A stretch of 64,000 bases of DNA, taken from Candidatus Woesearchaeota archaeon. Its GTDB lineage: Archaea > Nanobdellota > Nanobdellia > Woesearchaeales > DSVV01. Positions 2,248 through 38,332 of the stretch are shown one piece after another (positions within the stretch are counted from its first letter, which is position 1; each line of letters begins with the position of its first letter). A program made the translations under genes and the position numbers. The stretch is taken from the NCBI GenBank assembly GCA_043813525.1, contig JBDRKY010000046.1:13053-77052 (forward strand). The letters are read 5' to 3'. The notes beneath the pieces are model-generated. The model was not told the DNA's origin and ran no database searches. It saw nothing but the letters and a program-made list of their open reading frames with translations.

Positions 2248-2790
2248 TCAATTCTCATATATCAAACCGATATTCTTGCATCTTTCAAATAATTGGTTAG
2301 TTATAAACAAATCCTGCCTTAAATATTCCCTTACCTCTTCATATTTTTTTTGTTTCCAAAGCAATGGCATATCACCACCTTTAAAATCCTTATACTTACC
2401 TTCAACACCGATTAGTTTTGCGTAATCATTCAGTTTCCCGGACTTACCATACGTCCTAAATAATGTTAAATGCTCCCTTAGATCGATAAAAGAAGTTGAA
2501 TTAGGCCTGACAATCTCCAGATTATGATGCAGGCTTCTGTTGATCATGAAATAAAAATCAAAATCTCTTATGTTATAACCAACATATCTGACAGATGAGA
2601 ATTTCTTATGCAACTCTCTTATCTTATCCCAAAACTTCAGTATAAGCAATTTCTCATCTTCTTCCATGATAATCAATTCTTCTTTTAAGAATTTCATACC
2701 TATCGCAATAACCCTTCCATTTATAGGTGATAATGCATCTTCTCTGTTATCTGTCAAAGATGCTGTCTCTATATCTAATATAATTTCCAT
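2248..2790 (-). CDS. DnaQ-like (DEDD) 3'-5' exonuclease family protein
   Basis: An N-terminal ILDIETASL motif (Exo I DxE) and overall RNase H-like fold signatures. 180 aa. Confidence 0.55.
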   Translation of the reverse strand: MEIILDIETASLTDNREDALSPINGRVIAIGMKFLKEELIIMEEDEKLLILKFWDKIRELHKKFSSVRYVGYNIRDFDFYFMINRSLHHNLEIVRPNSTSFIDLREHLTLFRTYGKSGKLNDYAKLIGVEGKYKDFKGGDMPLLWKQKKYEEVREYLRQDLFITNQLFERCKNIGLIYEN

Positions 2791-2969
2791 GATTGTTCAC
2801 TTCTTATTATTTTGATTTTTAAAGATTTAGCTGGTTTGATATATGTAATCTATAACATATAATAAATCTATATATTTAATTATAATCGATTATATAAAAC
2901 ACCCCATCATCCAGATTTAGAGAGATATAGATAAAAACAGAACAATGAAAAGAATGAAGATGATATATA

Positions 2970-5657
2970 ATGAAAAAAGAGCAATATGATGATCAGTCTA
3001 CATTAACACCAGCGATGAAGCAATTTGTTTTCTTTAAAGAGAAATACCCAGATTGTCTTATATTATTCAGGATGGGTGATTTTTATGAGATGTTCTATGA
3101 TGATGCTAAATTAGCTTCTAAGATTCTGAATATCACACTGACCAAAAGAGGAACTAAAAATCCAGTTCCTTTAGCTGGTTTACCATACCATGCATTAGAC
3201 AATTATCTGGCAAAATTAATCAGAGCAGGGATCAAATGTGCGATATGCGAACAGATAGAAGATCCAAAAAAAGCTAAAGGTGTTGTCAAAAGAGATGTTA
3301 TCAGGGTTGTGACACCCGGAACAATCATTGATAATGGCCTTCTTTCAGATAGATCAAACAATTATCTGATGAGCCTGTCATTCTCAGACCAGTTGACAGG
3401 GATTGGGATAGTAGACCTGTCAACAGGTGAGTTTCTCACTACAGAATTATATAACGATAATAACAATAATAACTTGATGACTGAAATAAACAGGATAAAT
3501 CCTGCAGAGATAATATTTCCATCTGCACAGATAAATAATAGTATTATTCAACAGTTGAAAGAACAGAATTTTTATATCAATGAATATGAAGACAGGTTTT
3601 ATTTTTATGAGATAGCATATAATAATCTTAAGAATCATTTTAGTACAATCAACCTTGAAGGTTTTGGGCTTGAATCAGGAGGAGAAAAGAAAAAAATATC
3701 TATCGCTTGTTCAGGTGCATTGCTAAGTTATCTTCAGGAGACACAGAAAACAAGTTTAACCCACATCAACAAGATAAGATTTTTCAGCACAAGTGAATTT
3801 ATGATCTTAGACAAAGCAACAATAAGAAATCTTGAGATTGTGAATAATATAAGAGACCACACAGATGATAACACTCTGCTGGCAGTACTTGATAGGACAT
3901 TGACACCAATGGGATCAAGATTACTGAAAAGATGGCTGCTCAATCCATTATTGAATTTGAAACATATAAATTTACGCCTTGATGCAGTTGATTTTCTTTT
4001 CAGGAATATTTTAGTAAGACAAGAGTTAAAAGAATTATTTGATATTGTCAGGGATATTGAAAGGCTGATATCAAGAGTTAATTATGGAAACGCAAATGCC
4101 CGTGATCTATTGGGATTAAGACAATCTCTTAATATTCTCCCACAATTAAAAGAAATATTATTAGAACCTGATAATGAACTTATAGAAAATAATGAGATCT
4201 TAAAAAAAATTCATGATATTGATGACCTGAAAGATATTGCTGAATTAATCAGAAAAGGAATAAAAGAAGACCCTCCATTAAGCATAAATGATGGATGCAT
4301 AATAAAAACAGGCTGCAATAAAGAGCTGGATGAACTGCATGACATCTGCATCAATGGAAGGAGATATCTCAAGGATATTGAAGCAAAAGAACAGCAGAGG
4401 ACAGGCATAAGATCATTGAAAGTGAAATTCAACAGGGTGTTTGGTTATTTCATTGAGGTGACAAGGCCAAATCTTCATCTGATCCCAAAGAATGAAGACG
4501 GCAGTCTGGTATATATAAGGAAGCAGACAACAGCAAATGCTGAAAGATTTATAACAGAAGAGCTGAAACATTATGAAGAGAAGATCCTTGGAGCAGAGGA
4601 GAAAATTAAAGTTTTGGAACTAAACTTATTCAAAGAAATCTGCAATAAGATAATTGAAAAAACCAAAGAAATCCAGGATGCAAGCGATTTCATCGCAAAA
4701 GTTGATGTTCTATTAGGATTTGCAGCTGCTGCATCTGAATATAATTATACAAGACCTGAAGTTGATGATAAATTTTCTATAAGGCTTATGGAAGCAAGGC
4801 ATCCTGTGATCGAAAGGATTGAAAAAGTTTACATTCCAAATGATATCCATATCAGCAAAGACAATAAGACAATGATCATCACAGGACCAAACATGTCTGG
4901 GAAGAGTACAGTCATGAGACAGGTTGCATTATGTGTGCTTATGGCGCAGATCGGCAGCTTTGTGCCTGCAAAAAAAGCAGAGATTGGCATAGTGGACAGG
5001 ATTTTCACAAGGGTTGGCGCGCATGATGATCTGACACATGGCCAGTCCACTTTCATGGTTGAGATGAATGAAACTGCAACAATATTAAACAATGCCACAG
5101 AGAGCTCATTGATCATAATGGATGAGATTGGCCGCGGCACAAGTACATTTGACGGCGTCAGCATCGCATGGAGTGTTGCTGAATATATCAATAAAAATAT
5201 CAAAGCAAAGACATTATTTGCTACTCATTATCATGTCTTGACAAAGTTAGAAAAGTTTGATGGCGTAAAGAATTATCATATCGCTGTAAAAGAAAGCAAG
5301 ACAACAGACAGCAAAGGCAAGGTTAAGGACAATCTAATCTTTCTGCGTAAACTGATAGAAGGCGGCACTGATAAGAGCTTTGGTATTCATGTCGCTAAAT
5401 TAGCAGGCATGCCAAAAGAAGTAATAGACAAAGCAAAAGAAATTCAGTATAAATTAGAAGTTGCAGACAACATGAAAGATGAGATCATTGTTGAGAAGAA
5501 GAGAGGAAAAGATGATAATAAGATAGATAAGAAAGAAACTGAACATCTTATTAATTTTAATAATAAATCAGATACAGACAAATACAACAATAAAGAAAAA
5601 GATGATGAATTAATACAATTTACCAAACTAAGACAGAAAAGACTGATTGATCTATAG
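2970..5657 (+). CDS. mutS: DNA mismatch repair protein MutS (MutS1 type)
   Basis: 895 aa. N-terminal mismatch-binding region (MKQFVFFKEKYPDCLILFRMGDFYEMFYDDA). Walker A ITGPNMSGKSTVMRQVAL. MVEMNETATIL and DEIGRGTSTFDGVSIAWSVAEY motifs. C-terminal HTH-like tail. Confidence 0.9.
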   Translation: MKKEQYDDQSTLTPAMKQFVFFKEKYPDCLILFRMGDFYEMFYDDAKLASKILNITLTKRGTKNPVPLAGLPYHALDNYLAKLIRAGIKCAICEQIEDPKKAKGVVKRDVIRVVTPGTIIDNGLLSDRSNNYLMSLSFSDQLTGIGIVDLSTGEFLTTELYNDNNNNNLMTEINRINPAEIIFPSAQINNSIIQQLKEQNFYINEYEDRFYFYEIAYNNLKNHFSTINLEGFGLESGGEKKKISIACSGALLSYLQETQKTSLTHINKIRFFSTSEFMILDKATIRNLEIVNNIRDHTDDNTLLAVLDRTLTPMGSRLLKRWLLNPLLNLKHINLRLDAVDFLFRNILVRQELKELFDIVRDIERLISRVNYGNANARDLLGLRQSLNILPQLKEILLEPDNELIENNEILKKIHDIDDLKDIAELIRKGIKEDPPLSINDGCIIKTGCNKELDELHDICINGRRYLKDIEAKEQQRTGIRSLKVKFNRVFGYFIEVTRPNLHLIPKNEDGSLVYIRKQTTANAERFITEELKHYEEKILGAEEKIKVLELNLFKEICNKIIEKTKEIQDASDFIAKVDVLLGFAAAASEYNYTRPEVDDKFSIRLMEARHPVIERIEKVYIPNDIHISKDNKTMIITGPNMSGKSTVMRQVALCVLMAQIGSFVPAKKAEIGIVDRIFTRVGAHDDLTHGQSTFMVEMNETATILNNATESSLIIMDEIGRGTSTFDGVSIAWSVAEYINKNIKAKTLFATHYHVLTKLEKFDGVKNYHIAVKESKTTDSKGKVKDNLIFLRKLIEGGTDKSFGIHVAKLAGMPKEVIDKAKEIQYKLEVADNMKDEIIVEKKRGKDDNKIDKKETEHLINFNNKSDTDKYNNKEKDDELIQFTKLRQKRLIDL

Positions 5658-30850: not shown

Positions 30851-32131
30851 ATGGATGAAAAAATTAAACTAGCACTAGAAAAACAAAATCCATGGTGGTT
30901 TAATAGAAGTTTTGATACAGGTGTACCTCGGTTAGAATTTTATCCTGAACTTCACAAATATCTTAAAACTCCAGAAGTTCTTCTCATTTTGGGAGCAAGA
31001 AGAACTGGAAAATCAACACTTGCATATCAACTTATAAAAACACTTTCTGTTCAGCCAGAATCTATTCTTTTCATTAACTTAGATGAACCTCTTTTTCAAA
31101 GTAAATCTGATGACCCAGAATTTCTTACATCTCTAATAGAAGAATATACAGTTGAGCAAAAAAATGTGAATAAATTTTATATATTTATAGATGAAATTCA
31201 AAATTATAGCTATTGGGTACAAACAATTAAAACATTTCATGATGTAAACAAAAATTTGAAATTTGTATTAATTGGCTCTACTTCATCCCTTCTTAAAAGT
31301 GCTATGAGTATACGTCTTTCAGGAAGATATTTTAGTACTACAATTTATCCTCTTAATTTCAAGGAGTTTTTCTTGTTTAATGATGTGAAGAAACCAACAA
31401 TTCAACAAAAAAAGCAATTGTTTGGACAATATCTCAAATTAGGAGGGTTTCCAAGAGTAGTTCTGGAGAAAGATAAACAACTTAAACAAGACATTCTTAA
31501 GAATTATTTTCAAACAATTTATCTTAAAGATATTATCTATCCACATAAATTACGCAATAATAAAGATGTCTTTGATTTGTTATATTTTGCAATTTCTAAT
31601 ATAGGAAAACCTTTGTCATATAGAAAAATTGCTCAATTATTAAACATCTCTTTAGATACAGTCAAAGAATATCTTTTATATGCTGAAGAATCATATCTAC
31701 TTTTTCTAGTCAGAAAATATGATCCATCTGTTAAGAAGCAATTAGTAAACCCACAAAAAGTATATTGTATAGACACTGGACTTATTAACGCAGTATCTTT
31801 TAAATTTTCTGAGAATAAAGGCAGAATTTTAGAAAACTTAGTCTTTATGGCTTTGCAAAAAAACTATGATGAAATTTTTTATCACAAAGATAAGTCTGAA
31901 TGCGACTTCCTAATAAAGAAAGGTGCAAAAATAATAACTGCAATTCAAGTTAGTCTTACACTTAAAGATCCTGACACACGAAAAAGAGAATTAAAAGGTA
32001 TTCTTGAAGCAATTCATACCCATAAACTCAAGGAAGGTATTATTCTTACAGAAAAAGAAGAAGAAACTATAATTAATGAAAACAAGAAAATTTATGTAAA
32101 ACCTGTATACAAATGGCTCGAAGAATTTTGA
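30851..32131 (+). CDS. AAA+ family ATPase (COG1373/DUF4143-type)
   Basis: 426 aa. Walker A ILGARRTGKSTLAYQ, Walker B FIFIDEIQ, and a C-terminal DUF4143-like region. Confidence 0.7.
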   Translation: MDEKIKLALEKQNPWWFNRSFDTGVPRLEFYPELHKYLKTPEVLLILGARRTGKSTLAYQLIKTLSVQPESILFINLDEPLFQSKSDDPEFLTSLIEEYTVEQKNVNKFYIFIDEIQNYSYWVQTIKTFHDVNKNLKFVLIGSTSSLLKSAMSIRLSGRYFSTTIYPLNFKEFFLFNDVKKPTIQQKKQLFGQYLKLGGFPRVVLEKDKQLKQDILKNYFQTIYLKDIIYPHKLRNNKDVFDLLYFAISNIGKPLSYRKIAQLLNISLDTVKEYLLYAEESYLLFLVRKYDPSVKKQLVNPQKVYCIDTGLINAVSFKFSENKGRILENLVFMALQKNYDEIFYHKDKSECDFLIKKGAKIITAIQVSLTLKDPDTRKRELKGILEAIHTHKLKEGIILTEKEEETIINENKKIYVKPVYKWLEEF

Positions 32132-32191: not shown

Positions 32192-32677
32192 TTGACGCAC
32201 CAGATTCACTTTATGGGTGTTAAACCACTAACTCCTGCAAAACTCAAAAAAGAACATGATTCCCTGCCAAGAAATCATCTTATTGCTAACAACTTCTTTC
32301 TGATAAGAAATATTGAACAGTGGGGAGAGGGAACTAATAAGATCGTCAAGTGGAGTGTAAATCATGGTCTTAAAGAGCCAGATTTCAAAGAAATTGGTGG
32401 AGGATTTATGGTTGTGTTCTATGCTCCGAAAGATATCCTTGCTTTAATCCCAGAAAAAGGAAAAACTGATCTTAAGGAAATGGGATTAAATGAAAGACAA
32501 ATAGAAGGTTTGAGACTGATGATTAATCGGGGAGAAAAGCTTACAATCCAAGAATATGCTATGAAATTTGATGTTAGCAGTAAGACTGCAAAACGAGATA
32601 TTAAAGAATTAGTTGAAACTGGCTACATTAAGAAAGTTGGAGTAAAAAAGGGTGCTTTCTTTGAGGCATGTCCCTAA
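32192..32677 (+). CDS. C-terminal fragment of an AlbA_2/HATPase_c_4/HTH-type putative transcription regulator (N-terminally truncated)
   Basis: 161 aa that begins mid-domain. GGGFMVVFYAP...IQEYAMKFDVSSKTAKRDIKELVETGYIKKVG is the C-terminal HTH part of the COG2865 family. It is likely a remnant. Confidence 0.4.
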   Translation: MTHQIHFMGVKPLTPAKLKKEHDSLPRNHLIANNFFLIRNIEQWGEGTNKIVKWSVNHGLKEPDFKEIGGGFMVVFYAPKDILALIPEKGKTDLKEMGLNERQIEGLRLMINRGEKLTIQEYAMKFDVSSKTAKRDIKELVETGYIKKVGVKKGAFFEACP

Positions 32678-32714: not shown

Positions 32715-32948
32715 TTACTTCCTAAACACCATTTTAGACAGCGTATCTCCAAACGCGTACAAAACAATAGCTAATCCTAGAGAACCAAGACCAACAATCA
32801 TTAAAACAGAGATTTTCAACAAAAAGCCGCAAATTAAGAAAACTAAAGCTAGAAAGCCTATAACATAGCTTGGAAGCCGATACCTTTCTTCTCGGCTGTA
32901 TACTCTTCTTTGATTTGTTTTCTTGTTTTGGCCATTACTTACCTCCAA
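32715..32948 (-). CDS. small membrane protein (two TM helices)
   Basis: 77 aa. A basic N-terminus followed by two hydrophobic helices. Confidence 0.35.
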   Translation of the reverse strand: MEVSNGQNKKTNQRRVYSREERYRLPSYVIGFLALVFLICGFLLKISVLMIVGLGSLGLAIVLYAFGDTLSKMVFRK

Positions 32949-33429
32949 GGGTCTTCATAGCTTTAATATTTTTCGAAAATAAAGGGATTTCCTTATTTTC
33001 AAGCTTAGGGAAGATTTTCTCGATTTTCTCAAAAGTTTCGATGAAATCGTATACTCTCTTTGTTTCATCGAGTAAATGGTAATTTTGCAGTTCAAACCTT
33101 TGAATTAAGCGCACATAGTCGTCGAGAGAAAGCATTTGAACAATAATCTCATAGAGTTTCTGATCTTTAGATTCTGCAAAACTTAAGAAAAATGGAAGTT
33201 GCAAAACAAAGCCAATATCCAAATCTGTAGCCTTTTTCTCATTTTTTTCAGTAATTGAGAGGAAAATGTCTAAATTAAGGTAAACTTTCTGAGTATAGTC
33301 AGATAATGTGAGATAGAAATATTCTAAAGCTTGTTTGAAAGAATTTGTTAGTTTTGTGTTTTTACCCATATTGTTGATAATCTCTTTAATTAGCTTAGGA
33401 TTAGCTTGAAACTGCTTTCCTTTCCTCAC
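32935..33429 (-). CDS. hypothetical protein
   Basis: 164-aa ORF. No motif recognised. Confidence 0.4.
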   Translation of the reverse strand: MRKGKQFQANPKLIKEIINNMGKNTKLTNSFKQALEYFYLTLSDYTQKVYLNLDIFLSITEKNEKKATDLDIGFVLQLPFFLSFAESKDQKLYEIIVQMLSLDDYVRLIQRFELQNYHLLDETKRVYDFIETFEKIEKIFPKLENKEIPLFSKNIKAMKTLGGK

Positions 33430-33504: not shown

Positions 33505-33990
33505 GTTGGTAAAGGAAATAAACGTCGTGTAATTCCTATGAGTCCTTTAGTTAGGAATTTACTGCGAGACTTATTCTCACGACAGGACAGATTTCCTATA
33601 GCCATACGAACAATACAAAAGTACATTAGAGAAGTAGCTGAAAGAGCAAGAATAATGAAGCCAGTAAGTCCGCATGTATTAAGGCAAGGGTTTGAATATG
33701 TGCGAGTAAATGACTTAGATGGACATCAGCGAGGAGGATTTTACATTAAAAAAGAAAATTCGCAAGAATCAAATACTCATTTTGTACTAAAGCATTTGTT
33801 TACAGAATTGCATGACAATATTTATGTTGAGCAAGTATTTGGCGATAGAAGAGTAGACGCTGTGTTTTTGCTTGAAGGCTTCAAATTAGGTATTGAAATT
33901 GAAACAGGAGCAAACAGAGAAGATTATTTAGCAGATAAGATAAAGTGGTTAGATAAGAATTTTGACAGTTGGATTTTTGTCTGTCCTTAA
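33505..33990 (+). pseudogene. tyrosine recombinase (XerC/D-like integrase) C-terminal catalytic-domain fragment, N-terminally truncated
   Basis: The reading frame opens after stop codons at about 33430-33500. It reads IVGKGNKRRVIPMSPLVRNLLRDL...SPHVLRQGF, the integrase box motifs (KGxK.R.VPL, HxLRH). There is no N-terminal core-binding domain. The C-terminal 80 aa (VDAVFLLEGFKLGIEIETG) look like an unrelated PD-(D/E)xK-like segment. Confidence 0.5.
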
Positions 33991-34273: not shown

Positions 34274-35776
34274 TTGGCAAATACTAGCCTTAGAATGGTT
34301 TTATTTCCCATAGATGAAGGTTCAGTAAGAAGAGAGACTAATTTTTTTAGTTATGTTAATAGATTTACAACTGTTCTTGAAGAAGTTCTTAGAGACATTC
34401 GTACTGTTGTTAAAAGTTATGACGAATTTCCTACTTTAGATAATCCTGAAGATATGATTCGTCCAGATTTAGTTCAAGGCTGGGAAGATCTTTTTGGCAA
34501 TGAGAGAAGAACAATTAGCACTGTTGCAACTGTTCTTAGTGGATATCTGAAAAGAATAAACCCAGATGATGATAATTCTGGAGATCCAATTATTGATGAA
34601 GTTTCTCGTTTAGAACCCGACACTTATGTTTGGCAGATAAGATATGGTAATCAAAAAAAGAGAGCCATCGATGAAGCTGCCAAGGGTTTAGAAGCTAAAT
34701 TAGTTGATAGAATCAGAACTGCAGCTTTTGAATTGTCTCTTGAATATGCTGATAACATTGGACGAGATTTAAGTCCTCCAGAATACGCAAGTTTAGTTCG
34801 TGAAACTCCTATTCTAAGAGTTAATGGAAATGTTGTGGGTGTTGCTCATAAGTGGCGCTCTGATATGTATAGAAAAATTGGAGTTGCTCAAGGTATTGAT
34901 CCAGCATTGTTATATGAATTAGCGTTTAAGACTGTTGTTAAGGCTAAAGGCTGGGATTCATTAGGAGATAAACAATTAATTGAAGCACTTGAAGGAGAAG
35001 GTGTGCCAGTAAAGATGTTTACTCGCTACACAGGAAGAAATATTCAAACAGAAGAGCCTATAACACAAATAAGAGTAGATTCAACTGAGCCAGATTTGGA
35101 TAAGGATTTTAATTCTGAAGGAAGCCATAATTTCGAAGGGCAAAGTGTTCATTATATCATTTTGCCAACAAAATCAACTTATGCTCAAGCTACTAGTGCC
35201 TTAGTTACAGCTTGCCAAGAAGATAGGTTATCAGCACAACCTACTGCTTTTGGAAAACCTAGAGGTTTAACCTTCTTAGAACTTTATGTCGCTAGAAAGA
35301 TGAATGAAGATTTATGGAATACTTCCTTTGATACTTGCATGGGCATTGCCTACTCAAAAGACGATAATCTTAGATTTAAAGTAAGTCCAGTTTGTAAAGA
35401 ATTAATAGAAATTCCAGCAGATTATAATATTGCTGGACTGCCTGTTGTTTATGCTGATTTTGATGGTGTCGAGTTAGACAGAAGTGAGGGAACTTTTAAC
35501 ACTTTATTTACTTCCAGAGATCAATTAATGGCAAGTCAATTTTATGATATCGCTTTTGAGGGAAACAGTGCTATAAAAGAGTATGCAGCTAAAAAAATGT
35601 TTGATAATTTCGAATATAGAAATGCTTTTGGTATTTGGTTATTAAACTTTGTAAATGAAGACCAAATAAGGGGCATCTGGGTTTACGATCGTGACGACGG
35701 CTCTAGTGCTGGTGGCAACCTTAACCTTCTCAACTATAGCCGTTTCCTTCGAGTAGCCCACCTTGAGACGCCGTAG
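34274..35776 (+). CDS. DGR target protein (variable protein) with C-terminal variable repeat. The start codon is uncertain: TTG at 34274 or ATG about 21 nt downstream.
   Basis: 500-aa ORF, GC-shifted. The last approximately 30 codons (RGIWVYDRDDGSSAGGNLNLLNYSRFLRVAHLETP) are the VR. The corresponding TR encodes an Asn-rich AAC/AAT array (NNHNNNSNANGNNNLNNNS). The C-terminal region is plausibly a C-type-lectin/FGE-like ligand-binding fold, as in other DGR targets, but this is inferred. Confidence 0.75.
   Translation: MANTSLRMVLFPIDEGSVRRETNFFSYVNRFTTVLEEVLRDIRTVVKSYDEFPTLDNPEDMIRPDLVQGWEDLFGNERRTISTVATVLSGYLKRINPDDDNSGDPIIDEVSRLEPDTYVWQIRYGNQKKRAIDEAAKGLEAKLVDRIRTAAFELSLEYADNIGRDLSPPEYASLVRETPILRVNGNVVGVAHKWRSDMYRKIGVAQGIDPALLYELAFKTVVKAKGWDSLGDKQLIEALEGEGVPVKMFTRYTGRNIQTEEPITQIRVDSTEPDLDKDFNSEGSHNFEGQSVHYIILPTKSTYAQATSALVTACQEDRLSAQPTAFGKPRGLTFLELYVARKMNEDLWNTSFDTCMGIAYSKDDNLRFKVSPVCKELIEIPADYNIAGLPVVYADFDGVELDRSEGTFNTLFTSRDQLMASQFYDIAFEGNSAIKEYAAKKMFDNFEYRNAFGIWLLNFVNEDQIRGIWVYDRDDGSSAGGNLNLLNYSRFLRVAHLETP
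35670..35758 (+). repeat. DGR variable repeat (VR), about 89 bp, at the 3' end of the target gene
   Basis: It aligns base-for-base with 35999-36087. About 16 mismatches all fall where the TR has A (VR has T/G/C). The 3' edge (IMH-like, CGAGTAGCCCACC) differs from the TR at two T-to-C positions. A short hairpin ACGCC-GTA-GGCGT (35768-35780) spans the stop codon. Confidence 0.85.
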
Positions 35777-35998
35777 GCGTGCAAAAAATATTAGAGAATT
35801 AAAAAGCGAAAACTATTTATTCCAGTATTAATTCAAATTTCCTGACTTAGAGTTTTTATTCATCTGAGTAAAAGTTTTAGGTCGTGGGCTACACGTCCTT
35901 TCACTAAGGCTTGCAAGAGTCATGAAATTCAATCACAACAGCAATGAAGTGATGGTGAACAAACACTATGTGTTTAATGGGTGAGGGGGCTACATGAA

Positions 35999-36087
35999 GG
36001 GGCATCTGGGTTAACAATCATAACAACAACTCTAATGCTAATGGCAACAATAACCTTAACAACAATAGCCGTTTCCTTCGAATAGCT
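35999..36087 (+). repeat. DGR template repeat (TR), about 89 bp, immediately upstream of the RT gene
   Basis: GGGGCATCTGGGTTAACAATCATAACAACAACTCTAATGCTAATGGCAACAATAACCTTAACAACAATAGCCGTTTCCTTCGAATAGC is adenine-rich with AAC/AAT codons in the VR frame. It ends 9 nt before the RT start codon. Confidence 0.85.
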
Positions 36088-36096
36088 CATATTATT

Positions 36097-37179
36097 ATGA
36101 ATTATCAAGAATTGTGTTCTTACCAAAACTTAGAGTTGGCTTTCAAGAAAGCGAGAAAAGGAAAAACAACAAAGGATTATGTCATTGCTTTTGAGAAAGA
36201 CATGAAAGAAAATCTAACTAACCTTCGTTATGAACTTCTTTTACATAGTTATCGACCAAAACCACTAGAAATATTTATTATTAGAGATCCAAAAACAAGA
36301 ACGATTAGCAAGTCAGATTTTAGAGATAGAGTTGTTCATCACGCCCTATGTAATGTTATTGCTCCAACATTTGAAAAACATTTTATCCATGACTCTTATG
36401 CCAACCAAGTTGGAAAGGGAGCATTGAAAGCAATTTCTCGTTTTGATGAGTTTACAAGAATAGCCTCCAACAATTACACTAAGAAGATATTTGTTCTAAA
36501 GGCTGACATAAGAAAATATTTTGAGAATGTCAACCACAACGTCTTATTAGAATTATTACAAGCGCAGATTAAAGACAAGAAGATATTATGGTTAATCAAA
36601 CTAATATTATCAAACCATGCAACAAAAGTATCAAACAAAGGAATGCCTTTAGGTAATCTAACTTCACAATTCTTTGCCAATGTTTATTTACATGAGTTAG
36701 ACTTGTTTGTTAAGCATATTATCAAAGCGAAATATTACATTCGTTACGTGGATGACTTTATTATCATCAATAAAAGTAAGAACAAACTGAAACAATTCAA
36801 GAAGGAAATTAACAAATTTCTTTTAGAAAAATTAGATTTAGAACTGCACCCAGAAAAATCGAGAATTATTCAACTACAAAAGGGGATTAATTTCTTAGGA
36901 TTTAGAATATTTCCACAATACAAACTACTTGTAAAAAAGAATTTGCGGAAATTTAAAGCAAAACTAAATAATTACTCTGAAAATTTCCCAAAGGGTTGTT
37001 CAGATTACGACAAAATCTATGATTTCTTAGAAGGTTGGACTGCTTATGCTAAATATGCTAGCACCTACAAGCTAAGAAAAGAAATATTCCAAAGTATTGA
37101 ACCAGTCTTTGAAAACCAAATGTCAACCAAAGAAATCAACAGATACCTCAAAACAATCAAGAATCATAAGAAATCTTGA
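36097..37179 (+). CDS. diversity-generating retroelement reverse transcriptase (DGR RT)
   Basis: 360 aa. RT domains 1-7 with the catalytic YVDDFII. Motif 4 is MPLGNLTSQFFANVYL, the DGR-type (I/L)GxxxSQ rather than the group II QGxxxSP. There is no maturase/X or En domain. The TR is directly upstream. Confidence 0.85.
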   Translation: MNYQELCSYQNLELAFKKARKGKTTKDYVIAFEKDMKENLTNLRYELLLHSYRPKPLEIFIIRDPKTRTISKSDFRDRVVHHALCNVIAPTFEKHFIHDSYANQVGKGALKAISRFDEFTRIASNNYTKKIFVLKADIRKYFENVNHNVLLELLQAQIKDKKILWLIKLILSNHATKVSNKGMPLGNLTSQFFANVYLHELDLFVKHIIKAKYYIRYVDDFIIINKSKNKLKQFKKEINKFLLEKLDLELHPEKSRIIQLQKGINFLGFRIFPQYKLLVKKNLRKFKAKLNNYSENFPKGCSDYDKIYDFLEGWTAYAKYASTYKLRKEIFQSIEPVFENQMSTKEINRYLKTIKNHKKS

Positions 37180-37555: not shown

Positions 37556-38332
37556 TTAATGCCCTTTTGACTCTTCTGCCATTGCCAGAAAATATTTCAA
37601 TGTAATTCTGTATTGTTCTTGTATCTCTTTATTATCAAGACAAACAAGTTTACTGTTTCTTATTACAGATCCGCTTAATTGTGAACAGTGATATTGTTTT
37701 ACTGGGCTGCTTTCTTTTAATCCTATCATACTGCCAACATTGCTTGATCCGTATTCATCTTTGTCTGGCTCGATTTTTCCATTGATATATCTCTCAACAA
37801 AGTTTGCCTCTTCCAGAACTCTGTAAAATTCTTCAGTATCTGTTGTAGGGCTCTCTCTTTTTTCTCCAGCATCATGTTCTTTTTCAGATTCCATATCTCC
37901 AATAACCTCATAGACTAAAGCAAAGCTTTTTATTCTTCCGTTAGTGTGCATATCTAATGTTGCATGATAGACTTCACTTGTTGTGCATGCATCAAAACTT
38001 ACAGTGTAAGAATAAGTTATTATTTCTCTTCCATTTATTGATTTTCCTTTATACTCTCGTCCATATTTTCTGACTAATGCAATAGCTCTTTGAACCAGAT
38101 CTTTAGCTGAATGTTGCTGTTCATCTAAGTTATCTTTTGGTAATCTTGTTTCTTGTTCTTCAGGCAGTCTTATGTGCTGTTCTGTAGGTGTTGTTATTTG
38201 TTGGTCAGGCGGCTCATTTTGTTCTTGCGCATATGCATTTGCAATAAACTCTAATCCATTCTCTATCACTCTTGGTATTGATAAAAATGCAAATCCTGCA
38301 ATTACTCCTTCTAATAATCTTCGTCTTTTCAT
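37556..38332 (-). CDS. hypothetical secreted/membrane-anchored protein
   Basis: 258 aa with an N-terminal signal-anchor-like hydrophobic segment (LLEGVIAGFAFLSIP). Confidence 0.45.
   Translation of the reverse strand: MKRRRLLEGVIAGFAFLSIPRVIENGLEFIANAYAQEQNEPPDQQITTPTEQHIRLPEEQETRLPKDNLDEQQHSAKDLVQRAIALVRKYGREYKGKSINGREIITYSYTVSFDACTTSEVYHATLDMHTNGRIKSFALVYEVIGDMESEKEHDAGEKRESPTTDTEEFYRVLEEANFVERYINGKIEPDKDEYGSSNVGSMIGLKESSPVKQYHCSQLSGSVIRNSKLVCLDNKEIQEQYRITLKYFLAMAEESKGH

Follow-up and report, generated by a model that had tools for sequence, protein, structure and literature searches.

The cassette and its parts

The 64,000-nucleotide stretch of contig JBDRKY010000046.1 from a Candidatus Woesearchaeota archaeon (hereafter the window) carries on its forward strand a diversity-generating retroelement (DGR), a cassette in which a target gene with a C-terminal variable repeat (VR) is followed by a structured RNA, a template repeat (TR) and a reverse transcriptase (RT) gene (Table 1). 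We put at roughly 80% the probability that the locus as a whole is best explained as an intact, accessory-gene-less DGR of the nanoarchaeal type in Candidatus Woesearchaeota, in which the RNA of Rfam family RT-16 and the TR make up one RNA module. An earlier reading of the letters without database searches (the sequence-only reading) had called the DGR complete, and every hallmark open to testing was found: adenine-specific differences between TR and VR, the RT, a hairpin beside the VR and concerted evolution of TR and VR. The locus itself is another DGR in the DPANN archaea, a lineage known to be rich in DGRs, and it joins the already known family of avd-less nanoarchaeal DGRs with AvpA-type targets.

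Table 1 Features of the cassette and its surroundings, in window positions. MFE, minimum free energy.
Feature	Position	Strand	Remarks
Target (variable protein) gene, 500 aa	34274..35776	+	Open reading frame; N-terminal ~275 aa without fold match
C-terminal AvpA-like domain of target, ~225 aa	35096..35773	+	C-type lectin fold, predicted; ends in VR
VR	35668..35760	+	93 nt; 17 mismatches to TR, 16 at TR adenines
GC-rich hairpin ACGCC-GTA-GGCGT	35768..35780	+	Just 3' of VR; stop codon in loop
Candidate archaeal TATA-like box CTATTTATT	35813..35821	+	~24 nt upstream of RT-16 start; read from sequence
RT-16 RNA (Rfam RF03019)	35845..35998	+	Structured RNA directly 5' of TR
RT-16 P1 hairpin	35845-35861:35866-35882	+	MFE fold
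RT-16 5' box GUGGGCUA	35884..35891	+	5' strand of long-range helix; conserved C-A next
RT-16 outer stem	35895-35905:35980-35990	+	MFE fold
RT-16 inner hairpins	35908-35921, 35928-35959, 35961-35975	+	MFE fold
TR	35997..36089	+	93 nt; 35 adenines, 13 AAY codons
TR 3' box UAGCUCAU	36083..36090	+	3' strand of long-range helix; IMH*-like; not copied into VR
DGR reverse transcriptase, 360 aa	36097..37179	+	PLGNLTSQ and YVDD motifs
AAA_14/DUF4143 ATPase, then RecG-C-terminal/HTH protein	30851-32131 and 32192-32677	+	1.6-3.4 kb upstream of cassette
150-aa open reading frame	33538-33990	+	Residues 11-52 weakly like XerA/XerD tyrosine recombinase C-terminal catalytic region

The VR and the TR align without gaps over 93 nt at an offset of 329. 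The repeats of about 89 bp first described here (35670-35758 and 35999-36087) are real, and their extent was short by 2 nt on each side. When the 17 mismatches were tabulated by template base, the adenine specificity claimed for them was confirmed: 16 have A in the TR, with G (ten), T (four) or C (two) in the VR. The sole non-A mismatch is T in the TR against C in the VR (36087/35758), and the TR equals the VR at 57 of 58 non-A positions. Given that 35 of the 93 TR positions are adenines, the chance of 16 or more of 17 mismatches hitting an adenine is 1.4e-7 (hypergeometric). In the target frame, all 16 adenine substitutions affect the first or second codon position. In that frame the TR translates as NNHNNNSNANGNNNLNNNS and the VR as YDRDDGSSAGGNLNLLNYS, which reproduces the frame readings given earlier. 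None of the 18 mutable TR codons can turn into a stop, and about 4e17 protein variants are reachable. The bias is shared by relatives of the cassette, where 611 of 630 mismatches (97%) across 51 distinct TR/VR pairs are at TR adenines, compared with 94% in the window. A scan of both strands of the whole 64 kb for repeat pairs with A-biased (or T-biased) mismatches returned this pair only, and the window therefore has one target.

At their 3' ends the VR and the TR differ at 35753/36082 and 35758/36087 and then diverge, the VR ending in GAGTAGCCC and the TR in GAATAGCTC. In the family, the pattern over 54 TR/VR pairs is GGGGTA in the VR and GGAATAGCC in the TR. A DGR is expected to show asymmetric ends of the initiation of mutagenic homing type (the VR with IMH, the TR with IMH*) and, 3' of its VR, a GC-rich hairpin, and both are found in the sequence. 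The hairpin does overlap the target stop codon, as had been noted, with the TAG at 35774-35776. An equivalent stem with a GAA or GTA triloop accompanies 34 of 51 distinct VR flanks of relatives and none of 43 TR flanks. Both a TGGGGT/TGGAAT asymmetry and GRA-triloop hairpins inside target genes were already seen by Paul et al. 2015 (PMC4372165). By analogy with the hairpins of BPP-1 and of the nanoarchaeal DGRs, we infer that the hairpin in the window serves as a target-site recognition element.

The RT open reading frame (ORF) matches Pfam RVT_1 and, at 3e-112, phrog_1423 ('reverse transcriptase'). Its best relative in the PDB is 8ub7_A (bRT; E 1.7e-44), group II RTs following at about 1e-24; the 8ub7 numbering (D138, I181, G182, Q187) agrees with the bRT residues in Handa et al. 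(bioRxiv 10.1101/2023.10.23.563531). BLASTP against BPP-1 Brt gave 29% identity over 322 residues, full length, with an E value of 5e-54. The LGNLTSQ motif on which the sequence-only reading had relied is present as PLGNLTSQ and, together with YVDD, is invariant among 32 homologs. The protein has the motif 4 ([LIV]GxxxSQ) and YxDD of the DGR clade and no endonuclease domain. More than 8000 relatives exist, the closest of which are 58-65% identical and labelled Woesearchaeota or Nanoarchaeota. The RT start (36097) lies 7 nt past the extended TR end (36089), or the 9 nt given originally when counted from the first-reported end. From the conserved box that ends the TR to the RT start codon, the median distance in co-directional loci is 23 nt (range 5-68), with 8 nt in the window; the spacing that had been considered unusually tight is the norm of the clade.

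There is no ORF between target and RT in the window and no conserved small ORF near the cassettes of relatives. Avd is present in about 74% of DGRs and is not universal. The lack of an avd-like accessory ORF, already remarked upon, holds among the cassette-adjacent ORFs (32935-33429, 33538-33990 and 37556-38332), none of which matched Avd or a four-helix bundle in Pfam, NCBIfam or PHROGs, and is likewise the norm of the clade.

The target C-terminus is predicted to adopt the AvpA-type C-type lectin (CLec) fold of Nanoarchaeota DGR targets, in keeping with the fold suspected there. On this prediction the VR lies C-terminally within a variation-tolerant, ligand-binding fold, as is expected of a DGR. 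The likeness to AvpA was found by fold comparison only: the target matched nothing in Pfam, NCBIfam, PHROGs, PADLOC or the PDB sequences, and a 50-sequence profile of its C-terminal domain found nothing in PDB or Pfam. The claim that the protein has no recognisable N-terminal domains stands for its first ~275 residues, which are unassigned, and not as a description of a foldless protein. An AlphaFold2 model of the full-length target on a 2-sequence alignment had a mean confidence (pLDDT) of 32.5 and gave no usable N-terminal fold. A word-indexed search returned one homolog, P0122, which is 76% identical, and an exhaustive profile search returned 237 representatives of clusters at 50% identity. 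Nearly all of the latter align to the C-terminal ~200 residues only, and their length is mostly 260-300 aa; no relatives of the N-terminal ~275 aa were detectable beyond a small group. An AvpA-like CLec fold is in this way assigned, by prediction, to a protein family of at least 237 representatives (50% identity) that is without a Pfam family.

Two of the target relatives deserve separate mention. In P0281 (283 aa), an AvpA-like target, the ORF runs past the VR into sequence resembling an RT N-terminus (DICSYNNLELAFKMARKGKTQKEYVIECH), which suggests a locus with RT-like coding sequence right after the VR, be it a rearranged or degraded cassette or a gene-calling artefact. P0288, an AvpA-like homolog, is labelled as a Betaproteobacteria metagenome-assembled genome, while all other named relatives are Woesearchaeota or Nanoarchaeota; the label is likely due to a binning contaminant.

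P0122 belongs to a sister cassette (L088/L089) that shares RT-16 and the 7-nt TR-RT junction with the window; its TR is nearly identical, and it has two VRs. The target coding sequences of the window and L088 are 79.6% identical upstream of the VR (85% over the last 300 nt), and the orthologous VRs differ at 24 positions, 17 of them at TR adenines. Their TRs differ at six positions (TR 8, 31, 37, 49, 73 and 76). At all six, the window VR matches the window TR and both L088 VRs match the L088 TR. Since the VRs of each lineage carry the TR changes of that lineage, TR-to-VR transfer took place after the lineages split, and the comparison suggests that the cassette has been active at least since the split from its closest sampled relative. 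Non-A mismatches between TR and VR are confined to TR positions 3, 87 and 91 and so set the limits of the transferred tract at positions 4 and 86. In the relatives it is common for one TR to serve two or three tandem target genes, and every VR there has a GC hairpin of its own; in the window there is one target. Three VRs each are found at L005/L006/L024, L004, L047 and L048, and two each at L027, L035 and L088.

RT-16, the template and a long-range helix

The 220 bp between VR and TR, taken at first for a non-coding spacer, hold the structured RNA RT-16. It is the only Rfam family matched in the window, with a score of 69.6 bits against a gathering threshold of 50. The match spans model positions 1-158 at an E value of 1e-8, calculated for the whole window. 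We sampled the clade through its RT rather than its RNA: protein look-ups yielded 5 loci, and scanning metagenomes with an RT alignment yielded 80; a scan of genome contigs with the RT gave 2 loci, of which 1 was useful. A covariance model for RT-16 was made from five Rfam hits and scored the window copy at 140.8 bits. Of the 74 loci that extend 350 nt or more upstream of the RT, 64 have RT-16, which was detected in 62 by this model and in 2 by Rfam and a filter-free search. It lies on the RT strand in 55 loci and on the opposite strand in 7, five of them convergent downstream and two divergent. Pairing in the three core helices reaches 91.6% across 61 distinct copies (68.2% in shuffles), and compensatory changes occur at 23 of 25 pairs. 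The Rfam families RT-11 and RT-16 share sequence blocks.

Of the 45 loci that yielded RT-16 as well as a TR/VR pair, 41 have the RT-16 3' end within -7 to +3 nt of the TR start; in the four outliers (+29 to +39 nt) homology detection was truncated. Because this TR-abutting position is held in co-directional, convergent and divergent loci alike, RT-16 goes with the TR rather than the RT gene, and together with the TR it makes up one RNA module. In 80 viral DGR loci, whose RTs are 34-48% identical to that of the window, there were two weak RT-16-like matches only, which indicates that RT-16 is specific to the archaeal clade. The candidate promoter box of RT-16 (CTATTTATT), a reading from sequence, is kept in the sister locus L088, and TATA-like hexamers are enriched upstream of RT-16 in relatives.

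The RT-16 of L088 (7832-8031) carries an insertion of about 50 nt, an extra hairpin, in the conserved CAUAAA...UUCAA loop and is near-identical to the window copy elsewhere; this loop is a variable insertion site. A 10-nt sequence, ACTTAGAGTT, is repeated exactly and in direct orientation in the window, at 35845-35854 (the 5' arm of P1) and at 36128-36137 (RT codons NLEL). The downstream copy was considered as an alternative partner for the P1 3' arm and rejected, as it is not conserved in L088 and is probably due to chance.

The TR 3' end takes part in a second level of structure. At the 3' junctions of 54 TR/VR pairs, all TRs end in a conserved box, whereas the VRs have GGGGTA there and then diverge. 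The family consensus is GG-AA-UAGCC, represented in the window by CG-AA-UAGCUCA at 36079-36089, with an invariant AA (36081-36082) before the box. The box is complementary to a conserved GGGCUA at the 5' edge of the RT-16 core. In a composite alignment of 40 loci, the resulting 7-bp helix is 90.4% paired, compared with 76.2 ± 1.4% in shuffled alignments (reached by 0 of 500 shuffles, a control that is not phylogeny-aware). By the same control, cells with double changes number 43 where 12.1 are expected and the covariation score is 0.50 against 0.23, neither of which was reached in 500 shuffles. Slid registers gave 18-47% pairing. Compensatory changes are seen at six of the seven pairs; they include C-G to U-A, A-U to G-C and, in L027, a triple swap. 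The terminal A-U pair (A35891-U36083 in the window) is the same in 40 of 40 loci. All G-U pairs of the helix lie on the sense strand, which favours an RNA structure over a DNA inverted repeat.

RNAfold places the same helix (35884-35891:36083-36090) in the MFE structure of 35845-36096, with a z score of -3.4. The outer stem of RT-16 lies 3 nt from the long-range helix, and the TR starts a few nucleotides past that stem. As read from these alignments and folds, the helix of 7-8 bp loops out the RT-16 core and the whole TR. The non-A TR/VR mismatches at TR positions 87 and 91 (window and L088) fall inside it. A second candidate partner for the TR box, the RT-16 3' box (GGGCUAC, just before the TR), was rejected for lack of covariation (71.8% versus 73.4%).

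The VR also has some complementarity to the RNA. In the window, in L088 and in the L005 subgroup, the VR 3' end (GTAGCCCA, 35750-35760) is a closer complement of the RT-16 5' box (UGGGCUAC) than the TR box is; most other relatives have a VR that diverges straight after GGGGTA. Such complementarity could reflect either a role in target recognition or merely a longer stretch of TR/VR homology.

In most relatives, a further duplex forms a terminal clamp: the RT-16 5' arm (UGUCYYRG-like) pairs with a tail (CYRRGAC) 2-20 nt past the TR box, often with a U-run next to it. The mean energy was -18.7 kcal/mol for cognate duplexes and -13.8 kcal/mol for non-cognate ones (Mann-Whitney P 3.7e-9; 0 of 20000 permutations). 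The 5' arm of the clamp doubles as the 5' strand of the local hairpin P1, and the P1 3' strand extends into the 5' box in many loci. Since P1 shares an arm with the clamp and overlaps the 5' box, P1 on the one hand and the clamp plus the long-range helix on the other may be alternative conformations. The clamp 3' strand lies just before or over the RT start codon in relatives such as L018 (2338-2355), L058 and L034, and clamp and P1 could possibly act as a conformational switch that ties RNA activation to RT translation. A candidate clamp in the window itself would pair UAAUUCA (35829-35) with UGAAUUA (36098-104). It is weak, is located upstream of where transcription probably starts and has another register in L088; we leave it as doubtful.

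Priming, rival accounts and origin

In the general DGR model, which we assume here, the C-terminal VR in the AvpA-like domain would be rewritten from the downstream TR with changes only at template adenines. The mutagenised cDNA (TR positions ~4-86) would replace the VR by way of homology, the asymmetric 3' ends and the hairpin at 35768-35780. In BPP-1, the duplex between the TR and the spacer RNA (Sp) ends in the priming adenosine Sp A56, beside an avd:Sp 'stop' duplex (Handa et al., bioRxiv 10.1101/2023.10.23.563531). By analogy, the helix of the 5' box and the TR box could play the part of the TR:Sp template:primer duplex. The invariant A35891-U36083 pair would then set the RT to begin cDNA on the invariant AA (36082, then 36081), perhaps from a 2'-OH, like Sp A56 of BPP-1 or the branching G of retrons. 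The outer stem of RT-16 would be the point at the TR 5' end where cDNA synthesis stops. With its priming and scaffold domain 5' of the template, the RNA would be a permuted form of the BPP-1 DGR RNA with retron-like connectivity, and the RT-16 scaffold may make up for the missing Avd.

Generalised, and put forward tentatively, the proposal is that Avd-less DPANN DGRs use a circularly permuted RNA. RT-16 would be the counterpart of the BPP-1 spacer, the 5' box and the IMH*-like box would form the template:primer duplex, and A35891 or a neighbour would prime in cis. The outer stem would stop the cDNA, the scaffold would replace Avd and, in most relatives, P1 and the clamp would mark resting and active states.

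A number of observations weigh against this account of the cassette and its RNA. The priming function is assigned to the helix by analogy, and the helix could simply delimit or stabilise the template while nicked target DNA or another primer starts the cDNA. An A-C mismatch lies in the middle of the helix in 13 of the 40 loci, and the alignment itself includes three TR boxes placed by hand from the VR alignment and one locus added by hand. The VRs mostly hold a fixed GG opposite the invariant TR AA, from which it follows that the first templated nucleotides, if copied, are not transferred. The window and L088 are without the U-run tail and have only the doubtful, AU-rich clamp candidate. Ten RT loci of the same clade (L008, L015, L016, L021, L029, L030, L036, L046, L080 and L081) showed no RT-16 even with filters off; they may use a different RNA or have their TR elsewhere. 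The evidence for activity comes from sequence comparison with one sister lineage, and a relative present in three assemblies (L005, L006 and L024) has VRs identical throughout, so that ongoing diversification was not observed there.

It is also conceivable, although we consider it doubtful, that the cassette is a canonical DGR in which RT-16 is a mere RT-binding handle, stability element or leader and the helix bounds or protects the template. Priming would then come from elsewhere, either from nicked target DNA at the VR 3' end or from an element 3' of the TR. Priming data are absent for every avd-less DGR, and the VR-side hairpin and the asymmetric VR and TR ends would suit target-primed models as well. 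The fixed GG of the VRs opposite the TR AA also speaks for it, as does the short conserved 3' tail of most relatives. That tail, however, is missing in the window and in L088, where TR-to-VR transfer is nevertheless evident. A leader of the RT gene is contradicted by the TR-linked position of RT-16, which persists in convergent and divergent loci. The geometry of the helix, moreover, is like that of the BPP-1 priming duplex beside its stop duplex, with the invariant A-U pair, the conserved unpaired C-A and the invariant AA opposite, and this agrees better with the permuted RNA proposed above.

It is improbable that the cassette is a decaying or silent relic, whose A-biased differences are old and which does not diversify at present. 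What could be taken to point that way is the availability of one genome copy only, the lack of target cluster variants on record and the identical VRs of the relative seen in three assemblies. However, the RT ORF is intact, with its catalytic motifs kept and the residues that are invariant with 32 homologs, and RT-16, both boxes and the hairpin are all intact as well. In addition, the near-complete identity of TR and VR at non-A positions (57/58) has been maintained while the orthologous flanks diverged by 15-20%, and all six lineage-specific TR changes were copied into the VRs.

That the RT derives from a group II intron, a retron or a defence system and the repeats from an unrelated duplication can be dismissed: the group II RT/maturase model TIGR04416 is its best NCBIfam score, there are PADLOC matches to RT and DRT models, and relatives are labelled 'retron-type' or 'group II', but TIGR04416 reaches 172 bits against a cut-off of 300, retron St85 RT 61 against 235, and Drt3a, Drt2 and AbiA are also far under their curated cut-offs, while among solved structures bRT is its best relative by 20 orders of magnitude. 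No group II intron RNA was found in the window at gathering or E<1 thresholds, no retron RNA family matched in Rfam, and the template is homologous to a coding VR. A plain duplication is refuted because 94% of mismatches in the window, and 97% in the family, are at A.

With regard to its origin, the cassette lies among genes for an HTH regulator, the AAA_14/DUF4143 ATPase, the RecG-C/HTH protein, a DUF2238 protein and an AstE/AspA-type hydrolase; nothing viral was found among these neighbours, which are cellular or regulatory instead. Pairs of an AAA_14/DUF4143 ATPase and a RecG-C/HTH protein are frequent in archaeal genomes, and no connection between this pair and the DGR was found. In the 150-aa ORF, the similarity to XerA covers 42 residues at 27 bits against an NCBIfam cut-off of 220, the phrog_216 integrase matches at E 1e-3, and nothing matches the other ~100 residues. 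The ORF can be taken at most for the remains of a recombinase joined to another sequence.

The sequence-only reading had placed the cassette in a GC-shifted stretch next to an integrase remnant and suggested that it arrived on a virus or integrative element. The first of these points is marginal, given a GC content of 0.35-0.37 within a window range of 0.26-0.40, and the second reduces to the 42-residue match far under its cut-off. With cellular neighbours and no close relative of the RT in IMG/VR, where the best match was 48% identical, the evidence for such an arrival is weak. A viral origin was set aside as unsupported, considering the IMG/VR result together with the two weak RT-16-like matches in 80 viral DGR loci. 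The flanks of the window and of L088 show no synteny. Mobility of the cassette is possible yet unsupported.

Comparison with known systems

The closest kin of the cassette are the DGRs of Nanoarchaeota (DUSEL4) and groundwater DPANN archaea and their target AvpA (Paul et al. 2015, PMC4372165; Handa et al. 2016, PMC5006420, PDB 5ioo). They have in common the DPANN host, the RT clade, an AvpA-type CLec domain (predicted in the window), IMH/IMH* of the TGGGGT/TGGAAT type, a GC hairpin with a triloop and no clear avd. In the window, however, the 3' ends are CGAGTAGCC in the VR and CGAATAGCT in the TR, a single A/G difference instead of GG/AA; the hairpin loop is GTA and not GRA; and the target has an extra N-terminal ~275 aa. 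The arrangement of the cassette is 'Architecture A' of Wu et al. 2018 (PMC5758913), a survey in which 29% of DGRs were without any accessory gene and which proposed Avd-independent mutagenic homing.

The cassette resembles the BPP-1 DGR (mtd-avd-TR-Sp-brt) in its A-specific TR-to-VR changes, an RT homologous over its full length, a CLec target with a C-terminal VR (by prediction here), IMH/IMH* and a hairpin downstream of the VR. Another likeness is that the TR 3' end lies in a short template duplex, beside a second duplex at the TR 5' end. It differs in that Avd is needed in BPP-1, whereas none is found near the window cassette. It also differs in the position of the structured RNA, which is 3' of the TR in BPP-1 (Sp, RF03022; Weinberg 2017, PMC5737381; Handa et al., bioRxiv 10.1101/2023.10.23.563531) and 5' of the TR here (RT-16). 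The order on the BPP-1 coding strand is VR - avd - TR (3020..2887) - RF03022 RNA (2882..2750) - brt. The window has no match to the BPP-1-type DGR RNA (RF03022, Phage_DGR), with 7 nt separating TR and RT, and the gap between TR box and RT in the clade leaves no room for a spacer of 140 nt like that of BPP-1. The connectivity is permuted relative to BPP-1; the chemistry, cis-priming from a 2'-OH, may be the same.

RT-16 was described as one of 19 'RT' motifs near RT genes, with no function assigned (Weinberg et al. 2017, PMC5737381). In that study only RT-10, between TR and brt in BPP-1, was tied to a DGR, and retrons were guessed for many of the others. Relative to the published motif, RT-16 is here placed against the 5' end of a DGR TR and extended by two long-range helices beyond the Rfam model. 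The survey of Handa et al. (bioRxiv 10.1101/2023.10.23.563531) covered Avd-containing DGRs and five archaeal genomes, with 40 nt upstream and 100 nt downstream of the TR. In the literature searched we found no assignment of RT-16 to DGRs, no structured domain 5' of a TR and no pairing of such a domain with IMH*. What is new is the position of RT-16 on the 5' side of the template together with its pairing to the TR 3' end, an arrangement opposite to that of the sole DGR with a studied mechanism.

The BPP-1 model, the only mechanistic one, requires Avd together with a structured RNA on the 3' side of the template, while the clade considered here has thousands of members with an RT of 360 aa, an RNA of about 250 nt and no accessory protein. 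The arrangement amounts to a testable architecture, which gives an orphan Rfam motif a role, names the nucleotides of a covarying helix and points to a likely start and stop of the cDNA. How Avd-less DGRs prime and bound cDNA synthesis, an open question, is thereby turned into specific mutational tests. If the proposal is true, these cassettes would be minimal two-component (RT and RNA) systems for targeted mutagenesis and attractive for engineering.

The comparison extends to retrons. Like the msr-msd RNA of a retron, the RNA here has a structured domain 5' of the template, the template looped out between two strands, and a helix between the 5' region and the template 3' end, which in retrons sets the start of the RT and would do so here by analogy. 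Unlike in retrons, the RT lies outside the retron clade, the template is a coding repeat homologous to the target gene and the outcome would be retrohoming with A mutagenesis. A retron is further marked by a branching G, a1/a2 repeats and msDNA and has no homologous target gene. If the proposed arrangement is true, it would bridge the RNA topologies of DGRs and retrons.

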